Assembly: GCA_963734275.1 (NCBI GenBank)
Contig: CAVTGO010000013.1
Coordinates: 128,552-192,551 of the forward strand
Reading direction: 5' to 3'
Length of the DNA stretch: 64,000 nucleotides
Source of the DNA: an uncultured Actinomycetes bacterium
GTDB taxonomy: Bacteria > Actinomycetota > UBA4738 > HRBIN12
Both the position numbers and the translations under genes were made by a program. Shown here one piece after another: positions 1,546-44,326 of this stretch. The notes under the pieces are model-generated. The model saw only the letters and a list, made by a program, of their open reading frames with translations. It made no database searches and was not told where the DNA came from. How positions within the stretch are numbered: position 1 is the first letter of the stretch; every line of letters begins with the position of its first letter.

Positions 1546-3320
1546 CGCTCGCCTCGCTCGTAGGCGCGGACCATCGCCTCGTAGCCGCGCTGGGTGGCCA
1601 TCAGCTCCTCGTGCGAGCCGGTCGCGCGGATCCGTCCGTCCTCCAGGTAGAGCACGCGGTCGGCCAGGCGGATCGTCGAGAGGCGGTACGCGATCACGAT
1701 CAGCGTCGTGCGCAGCTCGCGGCGCAGGCCCGAGAGGATCTCGGCCTCGATCGTCGGGTCCACGGCGCTCGTGGCGTCGTCCAGGATCAGCACGCGCGGC
1801 TCGCGCACCAGTGCGCGGGCGAGGGCCACCCGTTGGCGCTCGCCGCCCGAGAGCGTGTGACCACGCTCGCCGAGGATGGTGTCGAACCCCTTCGGCAGCG
1901 CGCGCACGAACCGGTCGGCCTGCGCGATCGTCGCGGCGCGCTCGGCCTGCTCGCGCGTGACGCCCGAGTCGAGCGCGATGTTCTCGGCAACGGTGTTCAG
2001 GAACAGGAAGCTCTCCTGGAACACGACGGAGGCGGCTCGGCGGAGCGACGCCGGGTCGGCGTGGCGCAGGTTCACGCCGCCGATCAGGACCTCGCCGGCG
2101 TCGGGGTCGTCCAGGCGCACGAGCAGCTGCGCGAGCGTCGACTTGCCCGAGCCCGTCGGACCGACGAGCGCGACCGACTCGTCCGCGTGGACGTGGAGCG
2201 TGACCTCGTCGAAGACCCGAGTGCCGCCGAACCCGTACGTGAGGGACTCGGCGCGGACGTCGAGCGGACCGTCGGGCAGCGGGACCGGCCGCGCCGGGCG
2301 CTCGATCGTGACGGGCTGCTCGAGGACCTCGACGACGCGGTCGTGGCCGACGACGGCGCGTGGGAGCTCGGACAAGATCCATCCGATGAACCGCATCGGC
2401 CACGCGAGCATCCCGAACAGCGTGACCACCTGGACCAGCACACCGAGCGTGATCGCGCCGGTCGAGACCCGCCACGCGCCCACACCGAGGAGCACCGTCA
2501 TCGCGAGCGACGGCAGAGCCTCGAGCGCCGGCTCGAACCCGGCGCGGACGAAGCCGGCGTCCACCCGCTCCTTTCGGAGCGCCTCGGCCTTCGCGTGCAG
2601 GCGTTCGGTCTCGGCGCGCTCGCGGCCGAGGGCCTTGACGACGAGCGCGCCGTCGATCGACTCGTGCGCGACGGCGGAGACCTCGCCGATCCGCTCCTGC
2701 GCCCGCCGGGCCGGGCCCTGCATCCGGCGCGCGAACGAGCGGTTCAGCAGGGCCATCGCCGGGACCACCAGCAGGCCGACGAGCGCGAGGTACGGGTCGG
2801 TCGCGATCAGCGAGCCGAGGGCGAACACGACGAGGAACACCACGCCGATCGAGAACGGGATCGGGTACAGCACGTCGATCGAGGCCTCGACGTCCGCCTC
2901 CATGTGCGCGAGGAGTTCGCCGGTCGGCTGCGCCCGATGGTAGGAGAGCGCGAGGTCGCGGTAGCGGTCGGATACGCGGTCGCGGAGCGTGGCGGCGACG
3001 GCCGAGCCGGCCACGCCGCTGTAGAACCGGCGGATCCCGATGCCGAGGGCGCGCAGGGACGCGAGCCCCATCACCGCGCCGATGCCGAGCCAGACGGTGG
3101 AGGCCGGGACGCCCTCGGAGCCGAAGGCGGGCCGCAGGACCCGGTCCGTCACGCGCCCGAGGGCAACCGTCACCGCGACCGAGGCGATCGCGAACACGAA
3201 CGCCCCGGCCACCGCGACCCCGAACGGGCGTGGGTGCATCCGGACGTACGAGACGATCAGGCGGAAGCCCCGGGCGAACAGGCCCTTCGCGTCGAGACGG
3301 TCGCGTTCGGCGGTGTCCAT
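1542..3320 (-). CDS. ABC transporter, fused permease/ATP-binding protein (MsbA-like exporter half-transporter)
   Basis: 592-aa ORF with TM domain then Walker A GPTGSGKST, signature LSGGERQRVALARAL and Walker B ILILDDATSAVD. Confidence 0.9.
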   Translation of the reverse strand: MDTAERDRLDAKGLFARGFRLIVSYVRMHPRPFGVAVAGAFVFAIASVAVTVALGRVTDRVLRPAFGSEGVPASTVWLGIGAVMGLASLRALGIGIRRFYSGVAGSAVAATLRDRVSDRYRDLALSYHRAQPTGELLAHMEADVEASIDVLYPIPFSIGVVFLVVFALGSLIATDPYLALVGLLVVPAMALLNRSFARRMQGPARRAQERIGEVSAVAHESIDGALVVKALGRERAETERLHAKAEALRKERVDAGFVRAGFEPALEALPSLAMTVLLGVGAWRVSTGAITLGVLVQVVTLFGMLAWPMRFIGWILSELPRAVVGHDRVVEVLEQPVTIERPARPVPLPDGPLDVRAESLTYGFGGTRVFDEVTLHVHADESVALVGPTGSGKSTLAQLLVRLDDPDAGEVLIGGVNLRHADPASLRRAASVVFQESFLFLNTVAENIALDSGVTREQAERAATIAQADRFVRALPKGFDTILGERGHTLSGGERQRVALARALVREPRVLILDDATSAVDPTIEAEILSGLRRELRTTLIVIAYRLSTIRLADRVLYLEDGRIRATGSHEELMATQRGYEAMVRAYERGER

Positions 3321-5031: not shown

Positions 5032-6243
5032 TCAGGCGCGAGGGCGTTCCCCGTCGGGGTCGTAGAAGGCCCGGTCCGTGACCGTCCCGATGGCCGACGC
5101 CTGGCCCTCGGCCGCGGTCACCGTCACCTCCTCGCCGAGTGCGGATGGCGGGAGGTAGGCCATCGCGAGCGCCCGGCCGAGCGAATGGCCCTGGTCGGCG
5201 GAGGTGACGGTGCCGACCGGCTCGCCGTCCAGACGCACCTCGTCGCCGATCGCGGGCACGAACGACAGGTCGGGGAACGCGATCCCGAGCAGCAGCCGTT
5301 CGACGCCCTCGTCGCGCTGGCGCCGCAGCGCCTCGCGACCGACGAACCCGTCCGAGTCGAGGTCGACGGCCCACGCGAGGTTCGCCTCGAGCGGCGAGGT
5401 CGTCTCGTTCACATCGAGGCCGTAGAGGGGGTACTTCTTCTCCATCCGCACGCTGCGCAAGGCGCCGAGACCGGCCGGCACGGCGCCGAGATCCCTGCCG
5501 GCGTCGAGCACCGCGTCCCAGACGTGCTCGGCGTAGTCGCGCGCGTAGAAGAGTTCGTACCCGAGCTCGCCCGAGTAGCCGGTCCGAGACAGGACCGCGG
5601 GGACCTCGGCGACGGTGGCGTCGGTGAAGCGGAAGTAGGGGAGCGCCTCGGTCGCCAGGTCGGCGTCGGTGATCCCGGACAGCAGCTCGCGCGAGCGCGG
5701 ACCCTGGACCGACAGGTACGCGGTGCCCGAGATCGTGTTCGTCACGTAGGCCCGCCGGTCCTCGGCGTGCTCTCGGACCCACGCCTCGACGACGTCGGCA
5801 CGCGCGGGGGTGGCCACCAGCCAGAAGTGCTCGGCCGAATGCCGGAAGCACGTGAGGTCGTCCACCATCCCGCCCTCCTCGTTGCACACGGCCGAGTACA
5901 GGACGCCGCCGTCGGTCAGGCGGCGGGCGACGTCGCGCACCAGGATCGTCTGCAGGAGCGCTTCGGCGTCGGGTCCCTTGATGTCGATCGGGCCCGAGTA
6001 GTACACGTCGTACACGCCGGCGGCGCCGCGGGTGGCGAGATGCTCGTCCTCGACGCTGGTGAACACCACCGCGGCGTCGAAGCCGATCCGGTCTGCCATC
6101 TCGGCTCCGGCCTCGAGCAGCTTGTGGAAGTACGGCGTGTGTCGGCGTGCCAACCGGAGCTCCGTTCCGGGCTCGGCGATCCGGACGGGGAGGAGGATAC
6201 GGCGTTCGGTCTCCCCCGTACCCGGCGTCAGGCACGCGAGAAC
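5032..6243 (-). CDS. aminomethyltransferase family protein (GcvT-like, folate-dependent)
   Basis: Collinear similarity to GcvT (TPYFHKLLEAGAEM..., GMVDDL, TGYSGELGYEL, GLGALRSVRMEKKYPLYG). The long N-terminal extension of the 528-aa ORF is R-rich and not GcvT-like. A GTG start near 6243-6246 is inferred. Confidence 0.75.
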   Translation of the reverse strand, partial: VLACLTPGTGETERRILLPVRIAEPGTELRLARRHTPYFHKLLEAGAEMADRIGFDAAVVFTSVEDEHLATRGAAGVYDVYYSGPIDIKGPDAEALLQTILVRDVARRLTDGGVLYSAVCNEEGGMVDDLTCFRHSAEHFWLVATPARADVVEAWVREHAEDRRAYVTNTISGTAYLSVQGPRSRELLSGITDADLATEALPYFRFTDATVAEVPAVLSRTGYSGELGYELFYARDYAEHVWDAVLDAGRDLGAVPAGLGALRSVRMEKKYPLYGLDVNETTSPLEANLAWAVDLDSDGFVGREALRRQRDEGVERLLLGIAFPDLSFVPAIGDEVRLDGEPVGTVTSADQGHSLGRALAMAYLPPSALGEEVTVTAAEGQASAIGTVTDRAFYDPDGERPRA

Positions 6244-6284
6244 CACCCGCGATGAGTAGCCCCGTCGTGAGCCGAAACGCTGTG
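6232..6284 (+). promoter_or_regulatory. conserved upstream element, copy 1 (candidate promoter/operator or leader RNA) preceding Zn-ribbon paralog A
   Basis: 53 nt (gcacgcGAGAACCACCCGCGaTGAGTAGCCCCGTCGTGAgCCGAAACGCTgtg) about 90% identical to 7918..7970. It ends 31 nt before the ATG at 6316. Confidence 0.5.
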
Positions 6285-6315
6285 GTTCCCGGGCACCGCT
6301 TCCGATAGCAGAGCT

Positions 6316-6663
6316 ATGAACATCAAGACCAAGTGCCCCTCCTGCGGAGGCGTCGAGATGGGGATCCACGAGATCTCCCTGCGCCTCAAGGCCGACGGCT
6401 CGAACGGGATCTACGGGTTCACGTGCCCGAGCTGCAGCCTCGAGGTGAACAAGTCGGCCAGCCGCAAGACCGTCGCGCTCCTGATCGCCGCGGGCGTGGA
6501 GCCTGTCGAGGCCGACTTCGAGGCCATGGAGGCCGAGCTCCGGGCGCTTCCGGCCCAAGACCTGAGCCCGAACCCGGCCGCTCCGGCGTTCACGATGGAC
6601 GACCTCATCTCGTTCCATTTCCTGCTCCTGGACGACGCGGCGCTCGACGAGCTCGTCTCCTAG
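6316..6663 (+). CDS. small Zn-ribbon protein (CPSCGG...CPSC), paralog A; hypothetical
   Basis: 115-aa ORF. Paralogous (roughly 60% identity by eye) to the ORF at 8003..8356. Four Cys in two CxxC pairs; conserved C-terminal acidic FHFLLLDDAALDEL tail. Confidence 0.7.
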   Translation: MNIKTKCPSCGGVEMGIHEISLRLKADGSNGIYGFTCPSCSLEVNKSASRKTVALLIAAGVEPVEADFEAMEAELRALPAQDLSPNPAAPAFTMDDLISFHFLLLDDAALDELVS

Positions 6664-6776
6664 CTCCTCCCCAGGTCCTCCGTCTCCTCCGCCACCCCGG
6701 GTCGGGTCTCACGTAGCCTGGTACGGCGGCGGATCGACCGTCCCGCTGGGATCCGTGCACGCGAGGAGGGGTATCC

Positions 6777-6998
6777 ATGGAGCAGCGACCGGACGAGGAC
6801 CAGGCGATCGAGGAGCTCGAGCATGCGACCGATCCCGGACGTGCGGACGTACCCGAGGCCGACGCCTTGGAACAGGCCAAGGAGCTCGATCCCTCCGCCG
6901 AGCGCGAGCCCGACGCGGTCGGCGACAAACCCGAGTCGGACGCGCTGGACCAGGAGCGCGACGTGGGCGACGACGAGGGCGACGTCGAGCGCCGCTGA
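6777..6998 (+). CDS. small highly acidic hypothetical protein
   Basis: 73-aa ORF preceded by GAGGAGGGG about 8 nt upstream of the ATG. Low-complexity D/E-rich sequence. Confidence 0.4.
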   Translation: MEQRPDEDQAIEELEHATDPGRADVPEADALEQAKELDPSAEREPDAVGDKPESDALDQERDVGDDEGDVERR

Positions 6999-7000
6999 GC

Positions 7001-7849
7001 TCAGACGGTTCCGCTGAACGTGTCGCAGGCGGCCGGGTCGCCGGTTCGGTAGCCGGTGCGGAACCAGTGCTGGCGCTGTGCCGAGGACCCGTGGGTCCAG
7101 GTCTCGCGGTTGACCCGGCCCTGGAACTGCTCCTGGATCCGGTCGTCGCCCACCGCCGCGGCCGCGCTGAGCGCGTCGGCGATGTCCTGGTCCGTGATCA
7201 CCGCGATGAAGCCGGTCTCCTCGGCGTTCGCGGCCCAGGCCCCCGCGAAGCAGTCGGCCTGGAGCTCGATCCGCACGGAGGTGCTCTGCGGCCCCTGGTC
7301 GGTGCCACCCTGGTCAAGCGCGCCCAGGAGGTCCTGCACGTGATGGCCGTACTCGTGCGCGAGCACGTAGGCCTGGGCGAGCGGCCCGCTCCGCGCCCCG
7401 AAGCTATCGAGTTCCTCGAAGAAGCCGAGGTCGATGTAGATCGTGCCGTCGGCCGGGCAGTAGAAGGGCCCCACCCGGCTGGTGGCCGTGCCGCAGCCCG
7501 AGGTCGTCTGGTCGGTGAACAGGACCGTTTGCGCCTCCTGGTAGCCCTTCAGGCGGTCCCCCCAGAAAGCCTGGATGCTGTTCACGAAGCCCACGATCCG
7601 GCAGTCCTCGCTCTGCTGAGCATCCGCGCCCGTCCGGCACTCCTCGAGGTCCGAGCCCCCGCCGGTCGCCCCGTTCGGCGACCCTCCGGCGGTGAGGTTG
7701 AGCACGATGAGGACGATCACGACGAGCAGGCCGATCCCCCCGCCGCCCATCGCCATGCCCGGGCTGAGTGATGCGCCGCCGAACGACCGCTGGCCACGCC
7801 GGTCCTGGATCTGCGAGGGATCGAGCCTCGCCCGCTTGCGCCATCTCAT
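7001..7849 (-). CDS. YpfJ-family neutral zinc metallopeptidase
   Basis: N-terminus [20 protein letters not shown]..., Gly-rich TM segment and HEYGHHVQ zinc-binding motif. The start was chosen at the MRWR Met to match the family N-terminus. Confidence 0.85.
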
Positions 7850-7917
7850 GCGGGGCACCCTACCCGGCTCGACCGGTCCCACTCCTGGCGAACGGCCTCC
7901 CCTGGGACCGGGGCCGT

Positions 7918-7970
7918 GCACGTGAGAACCACCCGCGTTGAGTAGCCCCGTCGTGACCCGAAACGCTACG
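7918..7970 (+). promoter_or_regulatory. conserved upstream element, copy 2, preceding Zn-ribbon paralog B
   Basis: Near-identical to 6232..6284. It ends 32 nt before the ATG at 8003. Confidence 0.5.
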
Positions 7971-8002
7971 GTCCGGCGTACCTTCGCGCCGATACTTCAG
8001 CC

Positions 8003-8356
8003 ATGAGCAACATCCGGACCAAGTGCCCGAGCTGCGGAGGCGTCGAGATGCGGCCCGCCGCCATCTCGCTGCGGATCCAGCCCGACGGCACCAGCGGCAT
8101 CTTCGGCTTCACCTGCCCCGAGTGCAGCCAGGAGGTCAACCGGCCGGCCAGTGAGCGGACCGTGGCCCTGCTGATGGCCGCGGGCGTGGAGCCCACGGAG
8201 GCCTTCGACTTCGGGGTCCGTGAGGCCGAGCTCCTCCAGCTCCCGCCAGAGGACCTCAGCACCATGCCCGGCGCGCCGGCGTTCACCCTCGACGACGTGA
8301 TCGCGTTCCACTTCCTCCTGGAAGACGACGCGGTGCTCGCCGAGCTCGCTGTCTAG
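8003..8356 (+). CDS. small Zn-ribbon protein (CPSCGG...CPEC), paralog B; hypothetical
   Basis: 117-aa ORF with the same architecture as the ORF at 6316..6663. Confidence 0.7.
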   Translation: MSNIRTKCPSCGGVEMRPAAISLRIQPDGTSGIFGFTCPECSQEVNRPASERTVALLMAAGVEPTEAFDFGVREAELLQLPPEDLSTMPGAPAFTLDDVIAFHFLLEDDAVLAELAV

Positions 8357-8357
8357 C

Positions 8358-8534
8358 TCAGCGCTTGACCTTCCGCTCCAGCTTGCCCGCGGTGTCCTGT
8401 ACCGATCCCTTGGCCTTCTGCACCGTCCCCTTCGCCTGAAGGCTCCGGTTCTTCGTCGCCTTGCCGACCGCCTTCTTCGCGGAACCCGCGACCTTGTTCG
8501 CCTTGCCCTTGGCCTGTTTCTCAGCGCCCGCCAT
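8358..8534 (-). CDS. CsbD-family general stress protein (58 aa); not in the ORF track because it is under 60 aa
   Basis: Minus-strand translation MAGAEKQAKGKANKVAGSAKKAVGKATKNRSLQAKGTVQKAKGSVQDTAGKLERKVKR, a typical CsbD KxxG repeat pattern. GAGAGGAGG precedes the ATG. Confidence 0.75.
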   Translation of the reverse strand: MAGAEKQAKGKANKVAGSAKKAVGKATKNRSLQAKGTVQKAKGSVQDTAGKLERKVKR

Positions 8535-8674: not shown

Positions 8675-8770
8675 GATGCTCGCAGCGCAGATCGGCATCA
8701 TCGGGATCGTCGTGGTCGTGCTGGTGGTTCTCGCCGTCCTATGGTTCATCCGGGGACGACGGACCGTCTA
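8675..8770 (+). CDS. possible 31-aa single-TM peptide (MLAAQIGIIGIVVVVLVVLAVLWFIRGRRTV)
   Basis: Short hydrophobic ORF just upstream of the PAP2 gene. Weak RBS. Speculative. Confidence 0.25.
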
Positions 8771-8775
8771 GGCGC

Positions 8776-14308: not shown

Positions 14309-14910
14309 CGCTTCTCCCTCAGTGACGATGTCGTGGTCGCCAACGACGAGCGAGGACGAGCGCCAACGTCGAGAGACCCATGGTTCCGAGGGCCGCGAGC
14401 CAGAGGGCCAGGCCCGTGCCACGCACGATGGATGGCCCCGAGCTCGCGAGTGACGCCCCGATCAGGAATGCGAACCAAGAGATCGCCACGAGGCGTTGAA
14501 CCCTGCGCGCAGATCCCAGCGACCGGACCGTAGGGCTCGTCGAAGCTGTCACCCGGTCAGTGCTCACCATCGAAGCATCCCATGAGCGCCGCCGTTGCGA
14601 ACTCCCGATGACGCCAGCCAGGATCGCGAACGCTCCGACGAGCTGCCATTCCAGCCAGCGGATGTCCGTGATGAAGTCCACGAGCGCCAGACTGCCGCCC
14701 GCTCCCGGTCCGACGGCGGCGACCCCGCCCAACACACCAGGACGCGACACCGTGTTGGCCGGTTCATGCGTCGCGACGCCAGCGCCCGGGTCCGACGCAC
14801 GAGCCCACGGTGACCGTTGGTCACGGTGGGCGGATTCCTTCCTGCGCACGTCGGCCGTACCATCGGGCGGCATCCACCGGGCGAGCCTGACCCCGGTTAC
14901 GAGGAGCGAC

Positions 14911-15570
14911 ATGAGAGAAGACCTCGAGATCCTGAAGCAAGGCCTGATCGGCGCGGAGCGCGACGCGGCCGTCGGCGCCGTTCAACGCCTCGTGGACTCG
15001 GGGATGGACCCGAAGGCGATCATGGAGGACGGCATGGCCGTCGCCATGTTCGACCTCGGCGAGATGTGGAAGCGCGGCGAGGTGTTCCTGCCCGAGGTCG
15101 TGGCCTCGGCCGCGATCTTCAAGATGTGCAACGCGATCGTGGAGCCGGCGCTCCTCGCGCAGCGACAGCCGGGGGACGAGCGGGCCGCGCTGGTGCTCCT
15201 CGCGACGGTGAAGGGCGACCTGCACGACCTCGGCAAGAACATGGTTGGTGCGATGCTGCGTACGTCCGGGTTCGAGGTGACCGATCTCGGCAAGGACGTG
15301 TCCGCGGACACGCTGATCGAGAAGATCACCGAGCTGAGCCCGCAGATCGTCGGGCTCTCGGCGCTCCTCACCACGACGGTCCCGTACCAGGAGACGGTCA
15401 TCCGCAAGCTCGAGGCGGCCGGCCTGCGCGACTCGGTCAAGGTGATGGTCGGAGGCGCGCCCGTCACGCCGGAGTGGGCCGACAAGATCGGCGCAGACGG
15501 CTACGCGAACAACGCGCCCGAGGCCGTCGAGGTCGCCCGCAAGCTCGTCGGGCTGGCCCAAACAGCGTGA
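14911..15570 (+). CDS. cobalamin-binding corrinoid protein (MtgC/MttC-like)
   Basis: B12-binding motifs DLHDLGKN (DxHxxG), SALLTTT and MVGGA. GAGGAG RBS. 219 aa. Confidence 0.85.
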   Translation: MREDLEILKQGLIGAERDAAVGAVQRLVDSGMDPKAIMEDGMAVAMFDLGEMWKRGEVFLPEVVASAAIFKMCNAIVEPALLAQRQPGDERAALVLLATVKGDLHDLGKNMVGAMLRTSGFEVTDLGKDVSADTLIEKITELSPQIVGLSALLTTTVPYQETVIRKLEAAGLRDSVKVMVGGAPVTPEWADKIGADGYANNAPEAVEVARKLVGLAQTA

Positions 15571-16430
15571 CCGTGGTCGCGACCACCGTCCTGCGCGGCC
15601 GGGAGGCCGAGGTCAGGATCGGCGACGAGCATCCGTTCGCGATCGTCGGCGAGCGGATCAACCCCACCGGCCGTGCGCGGCTGACCGAGGAGCTCGTCGC
15701 CGGCGACATGACGACGGTGCGGGCCGACGCGCTCGCGCAGGTGGAGGCCGGCGCGCGGATCGTCGACGTGAACGCGGGGATCCCGGGGTTCGACGAGGCC
15801 GAGATGCTCGCGAACGTCGTGCGCGCGGTGACCGAGGTCGTGGGCGTCCCGCTCTGCATCGACTCCTCCACGCCCGCGGTTCTCGAGGCCGTCCTGCCGA
15901 TCGTCCCGGGCAAGCCGCTCGTGAACTCGGTGACCGCCGAGCAGCACTCGCTCGAGCGCCTGCTCCCGCTGATCGCGCGGCACGGCGCGGCGATGATCGG
16001 GATGGCGAACGACGAGGAGGGCATCTCGATCGACCCGCAGGTGCGGCTGAAGGCCGCCCGCAAGGTCGTCGAGGCCGCCGAAGCGCACGGGATCGCGCGC
16101 GAGGACGTGGTGATCGACCCGCTCGCGATGCCGATCGGCGCCGAGCCCCGCGCGGCGACCGCGATGGTCGAGACGATCCGGCTGATCCGCGAGGAGCTCG
16201 GCGTAAACGTCTCCTGCGGCGCCTCGAACATCTCATTCGGCATGCCCGACCGTCCGGCGATCGACGCGTCGTTCCTGACGTTCGCGATCCAGGCCGGCAT
16301 GAACCTCGCCATCACGAACCCGCTGCACGAGCGGGTCCGCAAGGCGGTCCTCGCAGCGGACCTGATGCTCGGTCGCGACGCGCACGGCGCGGCGTGGATC
16401 GCCGCGCACCGCGCCGAGCTCAGACGGTAG
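15567..16430 (+). CDS. methylcorrinoid:tetrahydrofolate methyltransferase (pterin-binding domain, MtgA/MtrH-like)
   Basis: GTGA start/stop overlap with the corrinoid gene. Pterin-binding fold signatures (IVDVNAG, GMANDEEG, NISFGMP). Confidence 0.8.
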   Translation: MTVVATTVLRGREAEVRIGDEHPFAIVGERINPTGRARLTEELVAGDMTTVRADALAQVEAGARIVDVNAGIPGFDEAEMLANVVRAVTEVVGVPLCIDSSTPAVLEAVLPIVPGKPLVNSVTAEQHSLERLLPLIARHGAAMIGMANDEEGISIDPQVRLKAARKVVEAAEAHGIAREDVVIDPLAMPIGAEPRAATAMVETIRLIREELGVNVSCGASNISFGMPDRPAIDASFLTFAIQAGMNLAITNPLHERVRKAVLAADLMLGRDAHGAAWIAAHRAELRR

Positions 16431-16923
16431 AGCTGACCCCGATCCCTCCGCGGGTCTGCGCGCCGTACCGCTCCTTCTCCTTCTGGATGTCGAGCGGGCG
16501 CATGGCCATCTCGTCGGCGTCGGTGAGCCGGTCGGCCGGCACCAGCCAGCAGATCTCGAATTCGAGCCCGTCGGGGTCCTTGCCGTAGACGGCCTTCGTC
16601 GTCCCGTGGTCCGTCGCGCCCGTCATCGCGTTCCGGGACGCGAGCGCTGCCGCGATCCGCTCGAGCTCGTCCAGCGTGTCGACCTCCCAGGCGAGGTGGT
16701 ACAGCCCGACGGCCCCTCGGCCGGCCGGGGAGTCGGCGGCCCCCGACCCGATGGCGAACACGCCGAGGTCATGGTCGTTCGTGCTCGCCTCGGCCTGCAG
16801 GAACGCGGCCCGGCCCGGGATCTCGGTCTTCACGCGGAAGGCGAGCACGTCCCGGTAGAAGCCCACGGTCCGCTCGAGGTCCCGGACGTACAGCACGGCG
16901 TGGTTCAGCTGGGTGATGGGCAT
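16420..16923 (-). CDS. VOC-family protein (glyoxalase/bleomycin-resistance/extradiol dioxygenase fold)
   Basis: MPITQLNHAVLYVRDLERTVGFY... HLAWEV... The start was set at an internal Met; the ORF N-terminus is R/G-rich. Confidence 0.8.
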   Translation of the reverse strand: MPITQLNHAVLYVRDLERTVGFYRDVLAFRVKTEIPGRAAFLQAEASTNDHDLGVFAIGSGAADSPAGRGAVGLYHLAWEVDTLDELERIAAALASRNAMTGATDHGTTKAVYGKDPDGLEFEICWLVPADRLTDADEMAMRPLDIQKEKERYGAQTRGGIGVSSTV

Positions 16924-16982
16924 GACGGGTTCTCCTCTCGTTCGCTCGTGGAACGCGGGAGCCGCTCGGAATCTTCCGCCGG

Positions 16983-17870
16983 TCAGTACTCGGCGCGCAA
17001 GGCGAGCAGGACCGCGACCGTCGCCGCCACGGCGAGCAGGCCCGCCACGGCCACGAACCACGCGCCGAAGCCCGTGATGGCCAGCTCGATCGACAGCTCG
17101 TCGCTGAGCTGCTCGTAGACGTCCACCAGGCCACCGGCGGTCGTCGCGGTGAAGGCGGTGCCGCCGGTCGTCTCCGAGATCCGCGCCATCAGCTCGACGT
17201 TCGCGCCCGCAAGCGTGCCCGGCTCGAGGTCCTGTCCGAGCACGACCGTGTAGACGGGGACCTCCAGGTCGGCCGCGTGTGCCGCGGCGTCGTCGGGATG
17301 GACCAGGCTCCCCGTGTCCCGGCCGTCGGAGAGCACGATGATCGCCGCGGGCGACTCGCCCTGCTGGTCCCAGAGGGTCTCGATCGCGGCGACCGACGCC
17401 TCGATCCCGTCGCCGATCACGGTGCCCTCTCCCCGAGGCAGGTCGATCAGCCCGTCGATGACCTCCTGGTGCTCGGTCGTCGGGGGCACGAGCAGCTCGG
17501 CTTCGGCCGCGAAGGTCACCAGGCCGACCCGCAGGTCGCCCGGGAGGTCCTCGAGGAATGCGCGCGCCGCCTCCTTCGCGGCCTGGAGCCGCGTCGGCGC
17601 GACGTCGTCGCGGCTCATCGACTCGGAGATGTCGAGCACGAGCACGACCGTGCCCGGCGAGCCCTGAAGGAACCGGAACTGCGTGAAGGCGATCAGCAGC
17701 AGGATGCCGGCCCCGGCCATCAGGACGGCGGCGACACGCTTGGCCCGCCGTGCCCGGTCGATCTTGTTGCTCTTACGCCCCGGAGGCCCCTTCTGTGGCG
17801 GCCTGCCGAAGATCACCGCGACGGCCAGGATCGCCACGACCGAGATCACGAGGAGCACGAGCGCGGGCAC
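16983..17870 (-). CDS. von Willebrand factor A (VWA) domain membrane protein (BatA-like)
   Basis: N- and C-terminal TM helices. VWA MIDAS motif DISESMS. Confidence 0.8.
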   Translation of the reverse strand: MPALVLLVISVVAILAVAVIFGRPPQKGPPGRKSNKIDRARRAKRVAAVLMAGAGILLLIAFTQFRFLQGSPGTVVLVLDISESMSRDDVAPTRLQAAKEAARAFLEDLPGDLRVGLVTFAAEAELLVPPTTEHQEVIDGLIDLPRGEGTVIGDGIEASVAAIETLWDQQGESPAAIIVLSDGRDTGSLVHPDDAAAHAADLEVPVYTVVLGQDLEPGTLAGANVELMARISETTGGTAFTATTAGGLVDVYEQLSDELSIELAITGFGAWFVAVAGLLAVAATVAVLLALRAEY

Positions 17871-17972
17871 GTCCCAACGCTAGCAAGGGTTCCGTGAGGA
17901 CGGGGGGAGCCGGCCGGGACGCGAGACGCGGCAGCTCTGGCCGGGACCACGCGGGAGCCGACGCCCCGCGCT

Positions 17973-17987
17973 GTGACCTCAGGTCAC
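17973..17987. promoter_or_regulatory. perfect inverted repeat GTGACCT-c-AGGTCAC (candidate operator) in the divergent intergenic region upstream of the RACo/MttB operon
   Basis: 7-bp arms, 1-nt spacer. Lies about 100 nt upstream of the GTG start at 18084. Confidence 0.3.
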
Positions 17988-18083
17988 GAACCGCCGTTCC
18001 ACCATCGTTCCTGATAGTGGGACGATCGCCTCGTGAGAGGCGGCCGGACATGACCCTGGGTAAGATGCGGAGGCCGCGCTAAG

Positions 18084-20531
18084 GTGCGCAAGCTCCAGGT
18101 CACCTACCTGCCGAGCGGCAAGACCGCCCACGTCCCCGAGGGGACCACGCTGTTCAACGCGGCTCACTGGGCCGGCCTGCCGATCGAGTCCACCTGCGGG
18201 GGGCGGGGCACGTGCGGCAAGTGCAAGGTCCGCGTCGTCGAGGGCATCCACGAGCCGACGCCGGCGGACCACCGAAAGCTCCCCGGCCAGGAGTTGGACT
18301 CCGGCTGGAGGCTCTCGTGCCAGCTCGCGGTCTCGGTCGACGCGGTGTGCGAGGTGCCGAACCTCCAGGTCACGCCGAAGGCCGCGACGATGGGTGTGGG
18401 GCGGTTCGTCCTGCTCGAGCCCAACGTGCAGAAGGTCCTCGTCGCGGTCGAGCCGCCGTCGCTCGAGGACGCGCGGAGCCACATCCGCCGGCTGCTGGAC
18501 GCGCTCGACGCCGAGGGGCTCGAGCCCACCTTCGGCCCGGCCGTGCTGCCGCGCCTGGCGCTCGCGATGCGCGACGAGCCGACGGAGGTCACCGCCACGA
18601 TCGTCGGGGAGCACCTCGTGGACGTCGAGGCCGGCGACACGAGCGGCACGATGTTCGGCGTCTCGCTCGACATCGGCACGACGACCGTCGTGGCCACCCT
18701 CGTCGACCTCACCACCGGCGCCGCCGCGGCCGTCGAGTCGACGATCAACAGGCAGGCGCCCTTCGGCGCGGACGTCATCGCGCGGATGGGGCACGCGATG
18801 ACCGGCCCCCAGGCGATCGACGACCTCCGCGCCGCGGCCCTCGATACGGTCAACGGGCTCCTCGAGAGCGTGTGCGCGACGGGCGGCGTCGCGCTCGAGG
18901 ACGTCTACGAGGTGGTGGTCGTCGGCAACGCGACGATGCTGCACCTGTTCCTCGGCGTCGACCCGCGCTCGATCGCGCTGTCGCCGTTCGTCGCGACCTT
19001 CCTCGAGCCGCAGGATCTGCGAGCGTCCGAGCTCGGCGTCGAGATCCATCCCGACGGCCGGGTCGCGCTGTTTCCCTCGATCGGAGCCTACGTTGGGGCC
19101 GACATCGTGGGTGACGTCGTGGCGACCGGCCTCGCGCGCGAGGAGGCCGTGCGGCTTCTCGTGGACATCGGCACGAACGGCGAGATCGTGTGCGGCAGCT
19201 CCGAGCGCGCGGTCGCCACCGCCGCGCCCGCGGGCCCGGCGTTCGAGGGCGGCCAGATCCTCCACGGGATGCGGGCCACCGAGGGTGCGATCGAAGGGGT
19301 CGTGCTCGACGAGGACGGGGTGCGCCTGCAGGTGATCGGCGGGGACGTGGCGCCCCGCGGGATCTGCGGGTCCGGCCTGATCGACGCGGTGGCTCAGCTC
19401 CGCCTAGCCGGGCTGTTGAGGGACAACGGGATCCTCCTGTCGCGCGACGAGGCCACGCTCGCGGGGCACCCGCTCGCCGGCCGCCTGGTCGACCGCGACG
19501 GCATCCGGGCGTTCGAGCTCGCCGAGGGCGTCCTCCTCACCCAGCTCGACGTCCGCGAGCTCCAGTCGGCCAAGGGCGCAATCGCGACCGGCATCGAGGT
19601 TGCGATGGACGCTCTCGGCGTCGGGGCGGAGGATCTGGACGAGGTGATGCTGGCCGGGTCCTTCGGGACGTACATCGACCCCGAGAGCGCGCGCGTGCTG
19701 GGGCTCGTGCCGCCGGTCCCGGTCGAGCGGATCCGGGCGGTCGGCAACGCCGCCAGCGAGGGTGCCAAGATGGCCCTCATGTCCTTCCGCGAGCGCGAGG
19801 TGGCGTTCGAGCTCCCGGCGTTCGTCGAGTACCTGGAGCTCTCGGGCGCCCCGGACTTCAACGACCGCTTCATCCGCAACCTCGCGTTCCCCGAGCTCGA
19901 CAAGCGCGGAGCGCGCCGAGTGACCTCCACCGGCGCCTCGGTGGCGTTCATCGCGTGCGGCGCGGTCGCCAAGGACACGGCGGCGATCGTGAAGGAGCGA
20001 GGCTGGAGCGCCGACGTGCACGGCATCTCGAGCGACCTGCACATGACGCCGCTCGACATCGGTCCGGCCGTCGAGGAGAAGCTCCAGGCGTTGCTGCCGA
20101 GGTACGACCGCGTGATCGTCGTCTACGGCGACTGCGGGACCGGCGGACGCCTGGACGCCGTCCTCGAGAAGTACCCGGCGGTCCGTCCGGCGGGGTTCCA
20201 CTGCTTCCAGTGGTACGCCGGCGAGCTGTACCGCCGGTTCGAGGACGACATCGGCATCTACTTCCTCACCGACTGGCTGGTGCAGAACTGGGACCGCGCC
20301 GTGATCCACGGCCTCGGCCTGGACCGCTTCCCGTGGCTGAAGGACGAGTACTTCGGCAACCTCACGCGGATCCTGTTCGTCCGCCAGCATCCCGATCCGG
20401 GGCGCGAGACCCGCGCGCGGGAGATCGCCGAGTGGATGGGCAAGCCGCTCGAGATCCACGACCTCGGAACGAAGCCGCTCGAGGACCTGCTCGTGCCGCT
20501 CATGGAGGAGACCTCGGATGTTCACGCCTGA
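18084..20531 (+). CDS. corrinoid reductive activase (RACo-like: 2Fe-2S ferredoxin + ASKHA ATPase) fused to a C-terminal DUF1638-like domain
   Basis: N-terminal plant-type ferredoxin motif CGGRGTCGKCKV. Central ASKHA-like region (GVSLDIGTTTV..., LVDIGTNGEIV). C-terminal roughly 200 aa (YDRVIVVYGDCGTGG...FLTDWL) resembles DUF1638. GGAGG RBS. Confidence 0.85.
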   Translation: MRKLQVTYLPSGKTAHVPEGTTLFNAAHWAGLPIESTCGGRGTCGKCKVRVVEGIHEPTPADHRKLPGQELDSGWRLSCQLAVSVDAVCEVPNLQVTPKAATMGVGRFVLLEPNVQKVLVAVEPPSLEDARSHIRRLLDALDAEGLEPTFGPAVLPRLALAMRDEPTEVTATIVGEHLVDVEAGDTSGTMFGVSLDIGTTTVVATLVDLTTGAAAAVESTINRQAPFGADVIARMGHAMTGPQAIDDLRAAALDTVNGLLESVCATGGVALEDVYEVVVVGNATMLHLFLGVDPRSIALSPFVATFLEPQDLRASELGVEIHPDGRVALFPSIGAYVGADIVGDVVATGLAREEAVRLLVDIGTNGEIVCGSSERAVATAAPAGPAFEGGQILHGMRATEGAIEGVVLDEDGVRLQVIGGDVAPRGICGSGLIDAVAQLRLAGLLRDNGILLSRDEATLAGHPLAGRLVDRDGIRAFELAEGVLLTQLDVRELQSAKGAIATGIEVAMDALGVGAEDLDEVMLAGSFGTYIDPESARVLGLVPPVPVERIRAVGNAASEGAKMALMSFREREVAFELPAFVEYLELSGAPDFNDRFIRNLAFPELDKRGARRVTSTGASVAFIACGAVAKDTAAIVKERGWSADVHGISSDLHMTPLDIGPAVEEKLQALLPRYDRVIVVYGDCGTGGRLDAVLEKYPAVRPAGFHCFQWYAGELYRRFEDDIGIYFLTDWLVQNWDRAVIHGLGLDRFPWLKDEYFGNLTRILFVRQHPDPGRETRAREIAEWMGKPLEIHDLGTKPLEDLLVPLMEETSDVHA

Positions 20532-21966
20532 GACGGCCCCGGCGGTGCTGTCCGACGAGCAACTCGCCCAGATCCACGAGACCGCCATGCGGATCTGCGA
20601 GGAGATCGGCCTCGACGTCCTGCACGACGGCGCCCGCAAGCTCCTTTCCGAGGCCGGCCTGAAGGTCGACGGCGACCGCGTCCGGTTCGACCGCGGGTTC
20701 GTGGAGGAGCAGGTCGCGAAGGCCCCGGCGTCGTTCGGGCTGCGCGCGCGCAACCCCGAGCGCTCGCTCGAAGTCGGCACCGGCACGCCCGTGTGGATGA
20801 ACGTCGGCGGGCCGCCGTTCGCGAGCGACCTCGACGAGGGGCGCCGCAGCGGCCGCGCGCAGGACCACGACGCCCTCGTGAAGCTCACGCAGGCGACCGC
20901 GGTCCTGAACTGCGTCCAGACCGGTGCGGTCGAGTCGGTCGACCTCGACGTGACCACCCGGCATCTCGACATGGAGTACTCGACGATCCGGTGGTCGGAC
21001 AAGCCGTACGTGACCTACGGGACCAGCGGCCCGAAGGCGCGCGACGGGATCGCGATGGCGGAGATCGTGCACGGCGGGCGCGAGGCGATCGAGCGAACGC
21101 CGGCGCTCATTGGCGTCGTGAACCCGAACAGCCCGCTCGTGTGGGACTTCCGGATGACCGACGCCCTGATCGCGTGGGCCGAGGCCAACCAGCCGGTGAT
21201 CGTGACGCCGTTCCTGCTGGCCGGCGCGACGAGCCCGGTCTCGATGGCGGGCGGGTTCGCCCAGCAGGCCGCCGAGGCCCTCTCGGGCGTGGCGCTGGCG
21301 CAGCTCGTGCGGCCGGGCGCGCCCTGCCTGTACGGATCGTTCTTCACGGTGACCGACATGCGGACCGGCGCGCCGGCATTCGGGACGCCCGAGGGCGTGC
21401 TGGCCGTGCTGGCCGGGGCGCAGATCTCGCGTCGCTACGGGCTGCCGTTCCGCGGCGGCGGCGGGCTCTCGAGCTCGAACGCCGTGGACGCGCAGGCGGC
21501 GGCCGAGACCCAGAACATGCTGTGGGCGACGCTGCTCGCCGGCACCGACGTGGTGCTCCACGCCGCGGGCTGGCTCGAGGGCGGGCTGACCGCCTCGTTC
21601 GAGAAGTTCGCGATGGACGTGGAGCTCCTGTCGCAGTTCCGGCGGATGGGGCAGGGGATCGGGTTCGGCGACGAGGAGCTGGCGTTCGACGCGCTGAAGG
21701 CGCTCGGGCCCGGCGGCCTGTTCCTGGAGTCCGACCACACGATGGCGCACTTCAAGGAGTGGCTCACGATGAGCCCGATCTTCCAGACGCAGGACTTCGC
21801 GACGTGGGAGATGTCGGGCTCGGTCGGGCCGGCGGAGCTCGCCAATGCGCGGTGGAAGGAGCTGCTTGCGTCCTACGAGGACCCCGGGATCGACGGGGCC
21901 GTGGACGAGGAGCTCCGCGCCTACCTCGAGCGCCGCAAGCAGGATCCGCCCGAGGACGAGGACTGA
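20518..21966 (+). CDS. MttB-superfamily methyltransferase, non-pyrrolysine type (quaternary amine:corrinoid methyltransferase, MtgB-like)
   Basis: 482-aa uninterrupted ORF (no in-frame TAG). The TIM-barrel MttB family pattern is present throughout. Start overlaps the RACo gene end. Confidence 0.9.
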   Translation: MFTPETAPAVLSDEQLAQIHETAMRICEEIGLDVLHDGARKLLSEAGLKVDGDRVRFDRGFVEEQVAKAPASFGLRARNPERSLEVGTGTPVWMNVGGPPFASDLDEGRRSGRAQDHDALVKLTQATAVLNCVQTGAVESVDLDVTTRHLDMEYSTIRWSDKPYVTYGTSGPKARDGIAMAEIVHGGREAIERTPALIGVVNPNSPLVWDFRMTDALIAWAEANQPVIVTPFLLAGATSPVSMAGGFAQQAAEALSGVALAQLVRPGAPCLYGSFFTVTDMRTGAPAFGTPEGVLAVLAGAQISRRYGLPFRGGGGLSSSNAVDAQAAAETQNMLWATLLAGTDVVLHAAGWLEGGLTASFEKFAMDVELLSQFRRMGQGIGFGDEELAFDALKALGPGGLFLESDHTMAHFKEWLTMSPIFQTQDFATWEMSGSVGPAELANARWKELLASYEDPGIDGAVDEELRAYLERRKQDPPEDED

Positions 21967-30780: not shown

Positions 30781-33214
30781 TCAGACGCGGATCCGCTCGC
30801 CCTTCGGGTCGTAGAGCGGGTCGTCGACGACGACGGCGCCCACGAGCTCGCCGAAGACGTCGACCGTCAGTCGCGTTCCCGAGGCGGCGAGCTCGGCCGG
30901 GAGGTAGGCGAACGCGATGCTCTGGCCGATCGCGTAGCCGATCCCCCCGCTCGTCACGCGCGAGACCACCCGGTCTCCGCTGCGAACCGGCTCGTTGCCG
31001 AGGGCCATCGCGGTGGCACCGGCGAGGGTCAGGCACCGCAGGGACCTCGATACGCCGCCCTCCCGCTGGGTCTCGAGCGCCTCGCGGCCGACGAACGCTC
31101 GGTCGTCCCACGCGACGGCGAACCCGAGACCGGCCTCGAGCGGCGTGTCGTCGGCCGTGACGTCCGAACCCCACGCGCGGTAGCCCTTCTCCAGCCGCAG
31201 GGAGTCGATCGCCCGGTAGCCGGCCGGGACCAGCCCGTGCGGCGTGCCGGCCTCGACCAGCGTGTCCCAGAGCGCGGCCCCGAACTCGGCCGGCGGGTAC
31301 AGCTCCCAACCGAGCTCGCCCACGTAGGTCACCCGGAGCGCGAGGCACGGGACGTCGCCCACGGTGATCTCGCGCGCGGTCATGTACGGGAACGCCTCGT
31401 TCGACAGGTCGTCGGCGCACGCGGCGGAGAGGATCTCCCGGGCCTTCGGGCCCCACATGCCCAGGCAGGCGAGCGCGGACGTGACGTCGCGGAGCTCGAC
31501 GCCCGGATCGTCCTCCCGCCTGCGTTTCTGCAGCCACGCCAGGTCGTGGTTCCCCGAGGCCGTGCCGGTGACGATCCGGTACCGATCCTCGGTCCAGGCG
31601 CGTGACCGTGACGTCGGCCTCGATGCCGCCGCGGCGGTTCAACATCTGCGTGTAGACGACGCTGCCGAGCGGCCGGTCGACGTCGTTCGCGCAGACCCGC
31701 CGCAGGAATGTCGTTGCTCCCGGGCCGGACACCTCGAGCTTCGCGAAGCTCGACTCGTCGAACAGCCCTGCCGCCTCTCGGGTCGCGAGGTGTTCGGCCG
31801 GGATCGCGGTCGACCAGTGCTCCCCCGCCCATCCTCGCGGTCGCAGGTCCTCGAAACGCTCGTCCTCGTTGGTGGCGAACCAGTTCGCCCGTTCCCACCC
31901 CGCCTTCTCGCCGAACTCGGCGCCGAGCGCCTGCAGCCGCGCGTACGTGGGGGATGTCTTCAGCGGCCGACCCGCCTTCGACTCCTCTCCTGGGTACCGG
32001 ACGTCGTAGTGCGTCGAGTAGATCTCGTACGCCTTGGCGAGCGCGTAGTCGCGGTCACGGTACGCGGGGCCGAACCGCCGGACGTCCATCTTCGACAGGT
32101 CCATCGAGGGCTCGCCCTCGACGATCCACTCGGCGGTGGAGCGGCCCACCCCCGCGGCTCCGGTGATGCCGTGTGCGCAGAACCCCGCGGCCACGAACAG
32201 GCCCGAGACCTCGGTCTCGCCGAGGATGAAGTCGTCGTCGGGCGTGAAGGCCTCGGGGCCGTTGATGAAGCGGTTGACCTCCACGGTCTGCAGCGACGGG
32301 ATCAGCGCGAACGCGCCCTCGGCGATCGCCTCGAACCGCGGCCACTTCTCCTCCAGCAGGCGGTGGTTGAAGTCCTGCGGGATCGGCGTGTGGACGTTCC
32401 AGGGATCCGGGTTCCGCTCGTAGCCGCCGACGACCAGACCGCCCACCTCCTCTCGCACGTAGACGAGGCGGTCGGGGTCGCGGAGCGTCGGGAAGTCGGG
32501 CCTGACACCCTCGATCGGGCGGGTGATCAGATACTGGTGCTCCATCGGGACGACGGGGATCTCCACACCGGCCATGCGCCCGAGCTCGTTGGCCCACAGG
32601 CCTCCCGCGATCACCACCACCTCGGCCTCGATGCGACCGTGGTCGGTGACGGCGCCGGTCACGCGGCCGCCTTCGACCGGGATCTCCACGACCCGGACGC
32701 CGGGACGGATCCGTGCGCCGCGCGACCTGGCGCCTTCGGTGAAGGCCGACGTGAGACCCGAGGGGTCCAGGTGCCCGTCCGTCGGGACGAACGCGGCGCC
32801 CAACACGTCCGTGCGGTCGATCAGCGGGAAGCGGTCGTGCGCCTGCGCCGCAGAGACGATCTCGATCGGCAGGCCGAACGACTCGGCCCATCCGGCCATG
32901 CGCGCGAGCGCCTCGAGCCGGTAGGCCGAGGTCGCGAGGTGCAGGGTTCCCACCTGGTGCCAGCCTGGGTCGACGCCGGTCTCCTCGTGCAGGCGGGGAT
33001 ACAGGTCGACGCCGTACATCATCATCCGCGTGTGGCTGACCGAGTTCCGCAGCTGCGCGACCAGGCCTGCCGAATGGAACGTCGAGCCGCTCGTGAGCTC
33101 GGAGCGCTCAACGAGCACGACGTCGGTCCAGCCGAGCTGCGTGAGGTGGTAGGCGATGCTGGCACCGGCGACGCCTCCGCCGACGATAACGACGCGCGCG
33201 CGATCCTCGGCCAC
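30781..33214 (-). CDS. dimethylglycine dehydrogenase/oxidase-like bifunctional FAD oxidoreductase + aminomethyltransferase domain; one apparent +1 frameshift near 31585-31595 (possible pseudogene or sequencing error)
   Basis: N-terminus VVIVGGGVAGASIAYH...TSGSTFHSAGL; C-terminus (ORF 30781..31458) is GcvT-like. The frames join if one C is removed from gaccgagg: ...VTRLDEDRYRIVTGTASGNHDLAW.... Confidence 0.7.
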
Positions 33215-44135: not shown

Positions 44136-44326
44136 CAAGATCCTCCCGCCTCCCCTGTGGAACGCCGCCGCTCGTGCTCCCGGCAATCGTAGCGAGAACG
44201 CGCGCGGACCGGGAAGACGATGGTGGCAGGCCTACAGCGGATCGACTACGGCCGAAAGTCCCAAAGGGGGGACGGCCGTTCAGCCGTCTAGGGGGTTCCC
44301 GCGGGAGGCAACCCCGAGGTTCGTGC

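Follow-up and report, generated by a model that had tools for sequence, protein, structure and literature searches.

The locus studied here raises the question of why two small Zn-ribbon genes, located within a 64 kb window (the whole stretch of DNA that was analysed), are each preceded at the same distance by an almost identical sequence of 53 nt. This element is genuine: it is a control region in the DNA, strongly conserved before the genes of an uncharacterised actinobacterial Zn-ribbon family, and it appears to form the upstream two-thirds of a family-specific region of about 80 bp acting at the DNA level. The reading to which we give an even chance, judging from the sequences, is that the region combines a sigma-28-type promoter, a leaderless mRNA and an upstream site for a regulator, probably an activator.

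The two copies and their genes

Both the Zn-ribbon ORFs and the near-identical elements before them had been noted in a preliminary description of this DNA, and these observations hold. The predicted proteins are paralogous (68% amino acid identity) and share a CPSCGG...FTCP(S/E)C motif and an FHFLL(L/E)DDA tail. The elements themselves (6232-6284 and 7918-7970) are identical at 48 of 53 positions and end 31 nt (copy 1) and 32 nt (copy 2) before the ATG, as described. They contain a 44-nt core (6238-6281 and 7924-7967) with only two differences between the copies, and no other copy with up to three mismatches was found in the 64 kb window, nor any in 100 shuffles. The block CCGATA between the element and the ATG (6302-6307 and 7989-7994) had been overlooked. 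The features are listed in Table 1.

Table 1 Features of the two control regions and of the neighbouring genes (positions in the 64 kb window)
Feature	Position	Strand	Details
Copy 1 distal module	6241..6269	+	AACCA 6241-6245, 11 nt, TAGCCCCGTCGTG 6257-6269; about -75 to -47 from the A of the ATG
Copy 1 linker and -35-equivalent tetramer	6274..6283	+	GAAAC 6274-6278 (A/T-containing), CTGT 6280-6283; CT invariant in orthologues
Copy 1 -10-like box	6301..6308	+	TCCGATAG; 17 nt after CTGT, 7 nt before ATG
Zn-ribbon gene 1	6316..6663	+	115 aa; 78% amino acid identity to its orthologue in L003; no Shine-Dalgarno sequence; predicted leaderless
Acidic 73-aa ORF	6777..6998	+	downstream of gene 1; no Pfam family
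YpfJ-type peptidase gene	7001-7849	-	
Copy 2 distal module	7927..7955	+	AACCA 7927-7931, 11 nt, TAGCCCCGTCGTG 7943-7955; about -76 to -48
Copy 2 linker and -35-equivalent tetramer	7960..7969	+	GAAAC 7960-7964, CTAC 7966-7969
Copy 2 -10-like box	7988..7995	+	GCCGATAC; 18 nt after CTAC, 7 nt before ATG
Zn-ribbon gene 2	8003..8356	+	117 aa; more divergent paralogue, 68% to gene 1 and 64% to the L003 gene
CsbD gene	8358-8534	-	

The Zn-ribbon family was not recognised in the preliminary description, and no curated family matches it: searches against Pfam, NCBIfam and the PDB gave no score above the curated cut-off and no clear structural relative. It comprises about 1,800 clusters at 50% identity, and its ancestral locus lies between pafBC and tatA-tatC-helY, directly downstream of pafB-pafC. 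In the public annotation of the assembly, both genes begin at an internal Met (101 aa for gene 1 and 102 aa for gene 2), which removes the first CxxC. A 76-aa ORF following the Zn-ribbon gene of the related contig L003 is a clear orthologue of the 73-aa ORF, so the pair is conserved there, and the 73-aa ORF is probably co-transcribed with gene 1.

The copies had also been said to bracket the YpfJ and CsbD genes as part of a stress- or metal-responsive mini-regulon. The YpfJ-type peptidase gene does lie between them, together with the 73-aa ORF, while the CsbD gene lies outside. The mini-regulon finds no support, with the element present only before Zn-ribbon genes and the peptidase and CsbD genes located on the opposite strand and not conserved as neighbours.

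Conservation of the element in orthologous loci

The direct orientation of the copies, their distance of 1.7 kb and the two core differences are what would be expected if their near-identity had no function and reflected nothing more than a recent duplication, or gene conversion between the neighbouring paralogues. However, the sliding-window identity between the copies reaches 0.87-0.93 in the element, against 0.33-0.6 upstream of it and 0.6-0.8 in the coding sequence. Overall, the flanks agree at about 40-50% of positions and the paralogous coding regions at about 73% (67% at third codon positions). The element is also kept, with its distance from the start codon unchanged, in 24 non-redundant orthologous loci, and the same invariant bases occur as a single-copy element in at least 20 other lineages, whose proteins are 50-78% identical. 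This explanation is refuted by the conservation across lineages, and the selective conservation of a cis element, proposed earlier from the two copies, proves to be genuine.

In the 24 aligned upstream regions, AAC-A, CC, TAGCCCCG, CT and CCGATA are invariant (the last in 24/24), the TCGTG following TAGCCCCG is kept in at least 90%, and the stretch from AAC to CT is free of gaps. Conservation does not extend upstream of the module. Across a wider set of about 80 loci, nearly all have GGTAG 61-65 nt and CCGAT 14-18 nt ahead of the ATG; CCGAT was found within 25 nt of the ATG at 22 of 22 deduplicated near-clade loci and 43 of 46 far-clade loci.

The element is specific to the gene family. Eight strict matches were found in 185,579 species genomes, seven of them preceding Zn-ribbon family genes and the eighth being a chance occurrence. 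With a position weight matrix (PWM) of the module, copies 1 and 2 scored 48.8 and 46.8 bits, no other site of at least 8 bits was present in the 64 kb window, and every match in 390 kb of loci sits before a gene of the family.

A structured leader RNA was among the readings first offered; it would be a riboswitch, an attenuator or a protein-binding leader whose promoter lies further upstream. Strong sequence conservation before a gene with no Shine-Dalgarno sequence would suit it, and alternating C4/G4 runs in one far-clade subgroup could pair as hairpins, although these are not kept beyond that subgroup. Neither leader matched Rfam at E ≤ 10 (there were three chance miRNA matches elsewhere in the region), and single-sequence folds, tried on both strands, were no better than shuffles (z = -0.5 and +0.1). 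With 24 diverse sequences, RNAalifold found zero consensus pairs on the + strand, and the sole hairpin on the - strand is weak (-4.4 kcal/mol), depends on G-U pairing and is disrupted in L004, L012 and L069. Given the lack of conservation upstream of the module, a promoter common to the loci is not visible there either, and a leader RNA is highly improbable.

A short coded peptide in the upstream region (beginning with ATG in copy 1 and TTG in copy 2, followed by SSPVV) was also rejected: orthologues have GCG, ATA or other codons in place of the start codon, and the conservation lacks three-base periodicity. Control of a divergent gene was discarded because the upstream gene is co-directional at many loci.

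The proposed core promoter

The element had been read as a sigma-A-like promoter, TTGAGT-N18-AACGCT, but these hexamers are not conserved among orthologues. The TT of TTGAGT varies (AT, TT, GC, AC, TC and others), only the final CT of AACGCT is invariant, the pair scores 6 of 12 against the consensus, and a sigma-70 scan of 6050-8450 returned no site. A SigF/SigB-type promoter with GGGTAG as the -10 was rejected as well, there being no conserved -35 located 14-17 nt upstream in either clade.

The block near the start codon instead resembles sigma-28 (FliA/WhiG) promoters. In Actinomycetota these have the form TAAA or T(A/C)AA-N16-GCCGATAA for WhiG2 and CTCA-N16-17-GCCGAACT for WhiG1/FliA (PMC8325347, PMC7005675, PMC12871210), the flagellar consensus being TAAA/GCCGATAA (PMC8325347), and CTCA-N16-17-GCCGA or T(A/C)AA-N16-GCCGA has been given as the rule for WhiG/FliA promoters of actinobacteria (PMC12871210). 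Sequences following this published rule, with CTCA-N16/17-GCCGA, were found at 42 of 46 non-redundant far or distant homologue loci, against 102 of 5000 control windows (2%); two of the 42, L094 and L095, have long leaders with a Shine-Dalgarno sequence.

The boxes of the window, TCCGATAG and GCCGATAC, share with sigma-28 -10 elements the central CGA and depart from them at no more than one of the first two bases, copy 1 starting with T instead of G. The resulting box T/GCCGATA(G/C), with its central CGA, is invariant in the family and common to these regions and sigma-28 promoters; the spacer is of 16-18 nt. The tetramers in the -35 position differ: against T(A/C)AA or CTCA, the window copies agree at only 2 of 4 positions each, and the near-clade loci have CTGG (11), CTCG (4), CTGT (2) and others, of which the CT aligns with that of CTCA in the CTCA-N17-GCCGAT of distant homologues. 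The published spacer range of 16-17 nt includes copy 1 and is exceeded by one nucleotide in copy 2, and near-clade spacers are 16 nt (4 loci), 17 nt (11, with L006 counted by eye) or 18 nt (9).

We infer that the core promoter is of the sigma-28 type, with the -10 box at -15 to -8 and, 17-18 bp further upstream, a -35 equivalent of which the near clade keeps the CT alone in place of CTCA or T(A/C)AA. In 14 of the 24 sequences the box is separated by 7 nt from an ATG preceded by a pyrimidine, so transcription is predicted to begin with the A of the start codon or with a base adjoining it. This would yield a leaderless mRNA, which would account for the missing Shine-Dalgarno sequence; at the Zn-ribbon genes of the window, neither such a sequence nor an upstream in-frame start codon was found. 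A leaderless transcript would also set these genes apart from known sigma-28 promoters. At 10 loci the box and the ATG are separated by 10 nt, not 7, and the subgroup of L015, L017 and L030 has GAGG-like bases 4-6 nt before the ATG, which makes a longer transcript from further upstream possible.

Within the window, CCGATA-N5-12-ATG occurs 5 times against 0.77 expected. Such an arrangement of box and ATG precedes a PAS-GGDEF-EAL gene, as CTAA-N17-ACCGATAC-N8-ATG, and also another ORF. Diguanylate cyclase and phosphodiesterase genes of this kind are the commonest predicted WhiG targets (PMC8325347, PMC12871210), and the PAS-GGDEF-EAL gene with its matching box agrees with the typical content of predicted WhiG regulons. 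Exact CTCA-N16-17-NCCGAT was found once in the window against 1.5 expected, a count that is not significant by itself. No whiG/fliA, flagellar or pilus genes were found in the 64 kb window or any locus examined, no sigma-70 region 2 pattern in the window or 390 kb of loci, and no sigma factor among the Pfam matches of the 42 window ORFs.

The upstream module

A long invariant module at a fixed distance has not been described for sigma-28 promoters. It has the form AAC-A-CC-N8-TAGCCCCGTCGTG, lies at about -76 to -47 and is rigidly spaced from the -35 position, with no indels in between. Its conservation is the inverse of that of the -35: far-clade loci have a near-invariant -35 and an only moderately conserved module, whereas in the near clade the -35 has decayed (1 of 22 loci matches) and the module is invariant, which fits dependence on an activator. 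The module is most likely bound by a dedicated, putative transcription factor that would contact RNA polymerase from upstream and so compensate for the weak -35.

At class I activator promoters, such as lac with CRP, the site is centred near -61 and the activator contacts RNA polymerase from upstream. The present regions share with them a site located wholly upstream of the -35, rigid spacing and a weak -35; the analogy is positional only, as the module is non-palindromic with a 13-bp invariant block. A non-palindromic block of this length is unusual for a typical dimeric regulator.

It is possible, but in our view doubtful, that the module is instead a repressor operator, bound by the Zn-ribbon protein itself (autoregulation) or by a stress-responsive regulator, with the CCGATA promoter constitutively competent. 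All-against-all BLAST of the ORFs of 21 near-clade loci found no recurrent transcription factor neighbour.

ECF promoters have the consensus GGAAC-N16-17-CGT. An ECF-type -35 had been suggested for the element, and the module can be read as a second upstream promoter (-35 GA(A/G)AAC, -10 CGTC) that would stand in tandem with the CCGATA promoter and yield a leader of about 42 nt. The bases that are the hallmark of such promoters are indeed both conserved in the near clade (AAC invariant, CGTC in at least 90%), and the Shine-Dalgarno-like bases at a few loci would be usable solely by a longer transcript. The geometry does not hold, however: AAC and CGT are 19 nt apart in near-clade sequences (20 nt in the far clade), and TAGCCCC, the most invariant stretch, would be part of the spacer, a segment not read by sigma factors. 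In addition, much of the far clade conserves GGGTAG but not AAC, and the strict motif occurs at no other gene, although an ECF regulon normally contains the sigma/anti-sigma operon at the least. This second promoter is unlikely.

PafBC acts by "sigma adaptation" at hybrid promoters with tGTCgg-N10-tA(N3)T, in which GTC is strictly conserved (PMC8635444). The location of the ancestral family locus directly downstream of pafB-pafC, the GTCG within the module and the idea of an upstream factor standing in for a missing -35 are all reminiscent of this system. A PafBC-dependent promoter was rejected, in that TAnnnT is not conserved at N10 after GTCGTG (TACGGT is present in copy 2 alone, at N11), GTC is replaced by GTT in the far clade, and the element lies near -50, not -26. 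No PafBC genes were found in the 64 kb window.

Other regulator sites fitted no better. In the pseudo-palindromic CsoR/RcnR operator, inverted repeats enclose a G/C tract of at least 4, as in GTAGCCCACCCCCAGTGGGGTGGATAC (PMC10318464); GTAGCCC is shared, but the two C tracts lie on one strand, with no inverted partner in the near clade. BldM and BldM-WhiI boxes (TCACcCgnncGgGTGA and TGnnCCGnnCGGGTGA) are 16-bp motifs with a CGGGTGA half-site (PMC4125116); copy 1 has CGGGTGG on the - strand (9 of 12 specified positions), many orthologues have GGGATGG, and the second half is mismatched. Motifs of the IdeR, LexA, CRP and GlnR/PhoP types, compared by eye, did not fit the invariant positions, and a literature search with the core strings returned only primers and unrelated sequences.

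Implications

In flgM-type logic, a small regulator gene is transcribed by the sigma factor that its product controls. The Zn-ribbon protein is likewise small, acidic and non-enzymatic, and in many lineages its gene has a sigma-28-type promoter; the comparison is pure analogy, as the protein has no sequence or fold similarity to FlgM or RsiG. That the family is an unrecognised component of the actinobacterial sigma-28 (WhiG1/FliA) circuit, for example a regulator or anti-sigma factor of RsiG-independent WhiG1 transcribed in this manner, is improbable; if it were true, the invariant module would be a new polymerase-adapting promoter element replacing the -35.

The control region is useful for annotation and is not a new kind of mechanism. 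It provides a widespread, unnamed family of small Zn-ribbon proteins with a testable regulatory anatomy, consisting of a -10 box, a predicted leaderless start and a 33-bp candidate regulator site, and the module is a ready bait for its putative binding protein. The results also suggest that sigma-28/WhiG-type promoters operate in uncultured Acidimicrobiia-like lineages, with candidate sites before a gene adjoining the Pup-proteasome/Tat locus and before a c-di-GMP enzyme gene. Finally, the start codons of the public annotation are corrected, restoring the first CxxC to both proteins.

Zinc-ribbon genes and their upstream elements

The window, with a G+C content of about 70.6%, contains two paralogous ORFs coding for small zinc-ribbon proteins which share 68% amino acid identity, each possessing a CPxCG...CPxC ribbon at the N-terminus and an acidic FHFLLxDD helix at the C-terminus. 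Searches of Pfam and NCBIfam returned no family for these proteins. Close relatives numbered 57 in a word-indexed search, while an exhaustive profile search gave 1,836 clusters at 50% identity (574 at E ≤ 1e-10); the named members, all annotated as hypothetical, are from Iamia and Acidimicrobiales metagenome-assembled genomes (MAGs). In the public gene calls (1311-1616 and 3001-3309 of the collected contig L001) both genes start at internal Met codons, leaving 101 and 102 aa without the first CxxC of the ribbon. Members across the family share the extended N-terminal sequence MxxI(R/K)TKCPxCG.

The near-identical 53-nt elements reported upstream of both genes in the preliminary description match at 48 of 53 positions, with 42/44 in a 44-nt core, and no further copy with up to three mismatches was found in the window or in 100 shuffles. 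Within the element identity is 0.87-0.93, whereas the coding region has 0.6-0.8 and the flank 5′ of the element 0.33-0.6; third codon positions of the paralogues are 67% identical. A uniform recent duplication, in which the coding regions would share the similarity of the element, therefore does not describe the pair, and the selective conservation originally proposed holds.

Sampling covered 80 metagenomic loci, several long contigs and 7 loci from species genomes. The near clade, comprising 24 non-redundant orthologous upstream regions with the window copies included, aligns without gaps 5′ of the ATG from a distal module, consisting of AACCA and an invariant block downstream of it, through the -35 position. 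Counted upstream from the ATG, nearly all loci have the start of GGTAG at 61-65 nt and that of CCGAT at 14-18 nt. The element region is a genuine promoter region, conserved selectively and specific to its gene family.

Features of the window and of related contig L003 (where named), with coordinates
Feature	Position	Strand	Remarks
Zinc-ribbon gene 1	6316-6663	+	115 aa; ATG at 6316
Zinc-ribbon gene 2	8003-8356	+	117 aa; ATG at 8003
Element, copy 1	6232-6284	+	
Element, copy 2	7918-7970	+	
AAC-A (copy 1)	6241-6245	+	invariant in near clade
CC (copy 1)	6247-6248	+	at least 90% of near clade
TAGCCCCG (copy 1)	6257-6264	+	invariant in near clade; then TCGTG in at least 90%
CT (copy 1)	6280-6281	+	invariant in near clade
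CCGATA (copy 1)	6302-6307	+	invariant in near clade; overlooked in the preliminary description
Acidic low-complexity ORF	6777-6998	+	73 aa, MEQRPDEDQAIEEL...; directly 3′ of gene 1
Acidic ORF in L003	4417-4647		76 aa; directly 3′ of copy-1-type gene
Hydrophobic ORF	8676-8771	+	31 aa, MLAAQIGIIGIVVVVLVVLAVLWFIRGRRTV
Methylamine/glycine-betaine type gene set	14500-21966, 5032-6100, 30781-31638		
Response-regulator gene	42906-44231	-	next after PAS-GGDEF-EAL gene
PAS-GGDEF-EAL gene	44327-47494	-	1055 aa
CTAA-N17-ACCGATAC-N8-ATG	47520-47492	-	ATG 47494; 5′ of PAS-GGDEF-EAL gene
Class I/II aminotransferase gene	50018-51412	-	
CTCAAG-N15-TCCGATGG	51451-51425	-	11 nt before ATG of aminotransferase gene
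TTCA-N17-GCCGATAC-N7-ATG	62308-62346	+	5′ of 514-aa ORF
514-aa ORF	62344-63888	+	

Proposed core promoter

The sigma-A hexamers originally read in the element (TTGAGT/AACGCT) do not withstand the comparison, as their TT and AACG vary freely among near-clade orthologues, and a sigma-70 consensus scan of 6050-8450 gave no site. In the far clade of more distant homologues, the strongest conserved bases form CTCAAG-N15-GCCGAT(A/G), and the two still more distant Acidimicrobiia loci, L094 and L095, have TTAA/CTCA-N16-GCCGATGG, after which come a leader of some 55 nt and a normal Shine-Dalgarno sequence. This is the published pattern of actinobacterial sigma-28-family promoters, namely -35 TAAA and -10 GCCGATAA (PMC8325347), with the consensus T(A/C)AA-N16-GCCGATAA for WhiG2 and CTCA-N16-17-GCCGAACT for WhiG1/FliA (PMC12871210). 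Of 46 non-redundant loci from the far clade or beyond, the search rule of the latter work retrieved 42, versus 102 of 5,000 control windows.

In the near clade the -10 box is fully kept as GCCGATAC (9 sequences) or GCCGATAA (4), copy 1 having TCCGATAG, and lies 16-18 nt from the -35 tetramer. The tetramers themselves are CTGG, CTCG, CTGT or CTAC, and the same rule retrieved 1 of 22 loci, so the window copies lack the published -35 sequence and are not classed here as proven sigma-28 promoters. They sit at the homologous position of one, and we infer the sigma-28 assignment of the core promoter from this position and from the consensus matches of the homologues.

The end of the -10 box is separated from C/T-ATG by 7 nt in 14 of the 24 near-clade sequences. 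No in-frame start codon was found upstream of the zinc-ribbon ATGs, and no Shine-Dalgarno sequence was found at the window genes. Given this spacing, these two absences and the internal-Met gene calls, a leaderless or near-leaderless mRNA beginning at the ATG is predicted as the simplest reading and is likely.

A structured leader RNA, the other possibility raised initially, found no counterpart in Rfam for either leader (E ≤ 10), single-sequence folds were no better than those of shuffles, and RNAalifold on the 24 sequences predicted no pairs on the coding strand; on the other strand it gave one G-U hairpin of -4.4 kcal/mol, broken in several sequences. The conserved element acts as DNA and not as RNA. 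A coded upstream peptide was also rejected, as the ATG/TTG of the window copies is absent from the orthologues and the conservation has no codon periodicity.

Distal module

Within the near clade nothing is as invariant as the module, AACCA-N11-TAGCCCCGTCGTG at about -76 to -47, and no indel separates it from the -35 position in any sequence. In copy 1 the candidate regulator site spans 33 bp, 6238-6270. When 185,579 species genomes were scanned with a strict pattern, 8 sites matched; 7 lie directly 5′ of family members in Actinomycetota MAGs, and the eighth, in an AT-rich contig, is due to chance. In the 64-kb window a PWM detected no sites beyond the two already known, and all its other matches in the 390 kb of sequence from the collected loci lay upstream of a family member. 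The module is specific to the zinc-ribbon gene family.

It is not palindromic and does not fit PafBC, CsoR/RcnR or BldM/WhiI boxes. Of the ECF promoter suggested earlier, the AAC and CGTC letters are present, but the gap between them is 19-20 nt and the most conserved bases fall in the would-be spacer. Because the module lies upstream of the -35 position at rigid spacing, and because module strength and -35 quality are inversely related across the near and far clades, the favoured reading is the site of a dedicated activator, which would contact RNA polymerase from upstream; binding by a repressor, autoregulation included, is possible. No regulator gene was found as a conserved neighbour of the near-clade zinc-ribbon genes, and the nature of the factor is inferred. 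A core promoter with an upstream regulator site is of an ordinary kind; the motif and the protein family are undescribed.

One near-clade sub-group has an extra upstream block, (G)ATACCCGATCTTTGGGAG, and another has GCGCTACGGCA with GACYTTCGRCCTAGG about 30 nt further upstream (L084, L086, L087 and L088, about 25-45 nt 5′ of AACCA; L005, L007, L008, L012, L013 and L090). These blocks could be additional promoters or sites.

Genomic context

The usual locus order is pafB-pafC (or a GDPD gene), the zinc-ribbon gene, an optional small ORF and tatA-tatC-helY, adjoining Pup-proteasome genes. The distant homologues L029, L092, L094 and L095 show this order beside prcB-prcA-pafA, with pafB-pafC coding for WYL/WCX regulators. 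This arrangement is the ancestral locus and the two window copies are relocated paralogues; at the distant loci the putative sigma-28-type promoter could also drive tatA-tatC.

The copy 1 gene is the orthologue of the single zinc-ribbon gene of L003 (78% identity). The acidic protein encoded directly 3′ of both, which belongs to no known family, may be a co-transcribed partner. Neighbours of the near-clade genes vary between loci, and the peptidase and CsbD genes lie on the opposite strand without the element, so the stress- or metal-responsive mini-regulon proposed for this region is unsupported. Between the CsbD and a PAP2 gene there is a hydrophobic ORF, also called in the public assembly. 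The window further contains, unrelated to the element, a methylamine/glycine-betaine type gene set including a corrinoid-binding protein, RACo reductive activase, an MttB-family methyltransferase, two GCV_T-type aminomethyltransferases and choline-kinase-like genes.

Similar boxes elsewhere in the window

The window has five occurrences of CCGATA-N5-12-ATG versus 0.77 expected; two belong to the zinc-ribbon genes and two precede other ORFs. A second candidate for a leaderless promoter of the sigma-28 type is the box upstream of the PAS-GGDEF-EAL gene. Among predicted WhiG targets, c-di-GMP enzymes are the most frequent (PMC8325347, PMC12871210), and this gene is of a typical class in the predicted regulon. 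The site before the aminotransferase gene fits the published WhiG1 rule and is within chance for 64 kb (1 found, 1.5 expected). The 514-aa ORF, for which Pfam and NCBIfam gave no family, matches the zinc-ribbon genes in the geometry from box to ATG.
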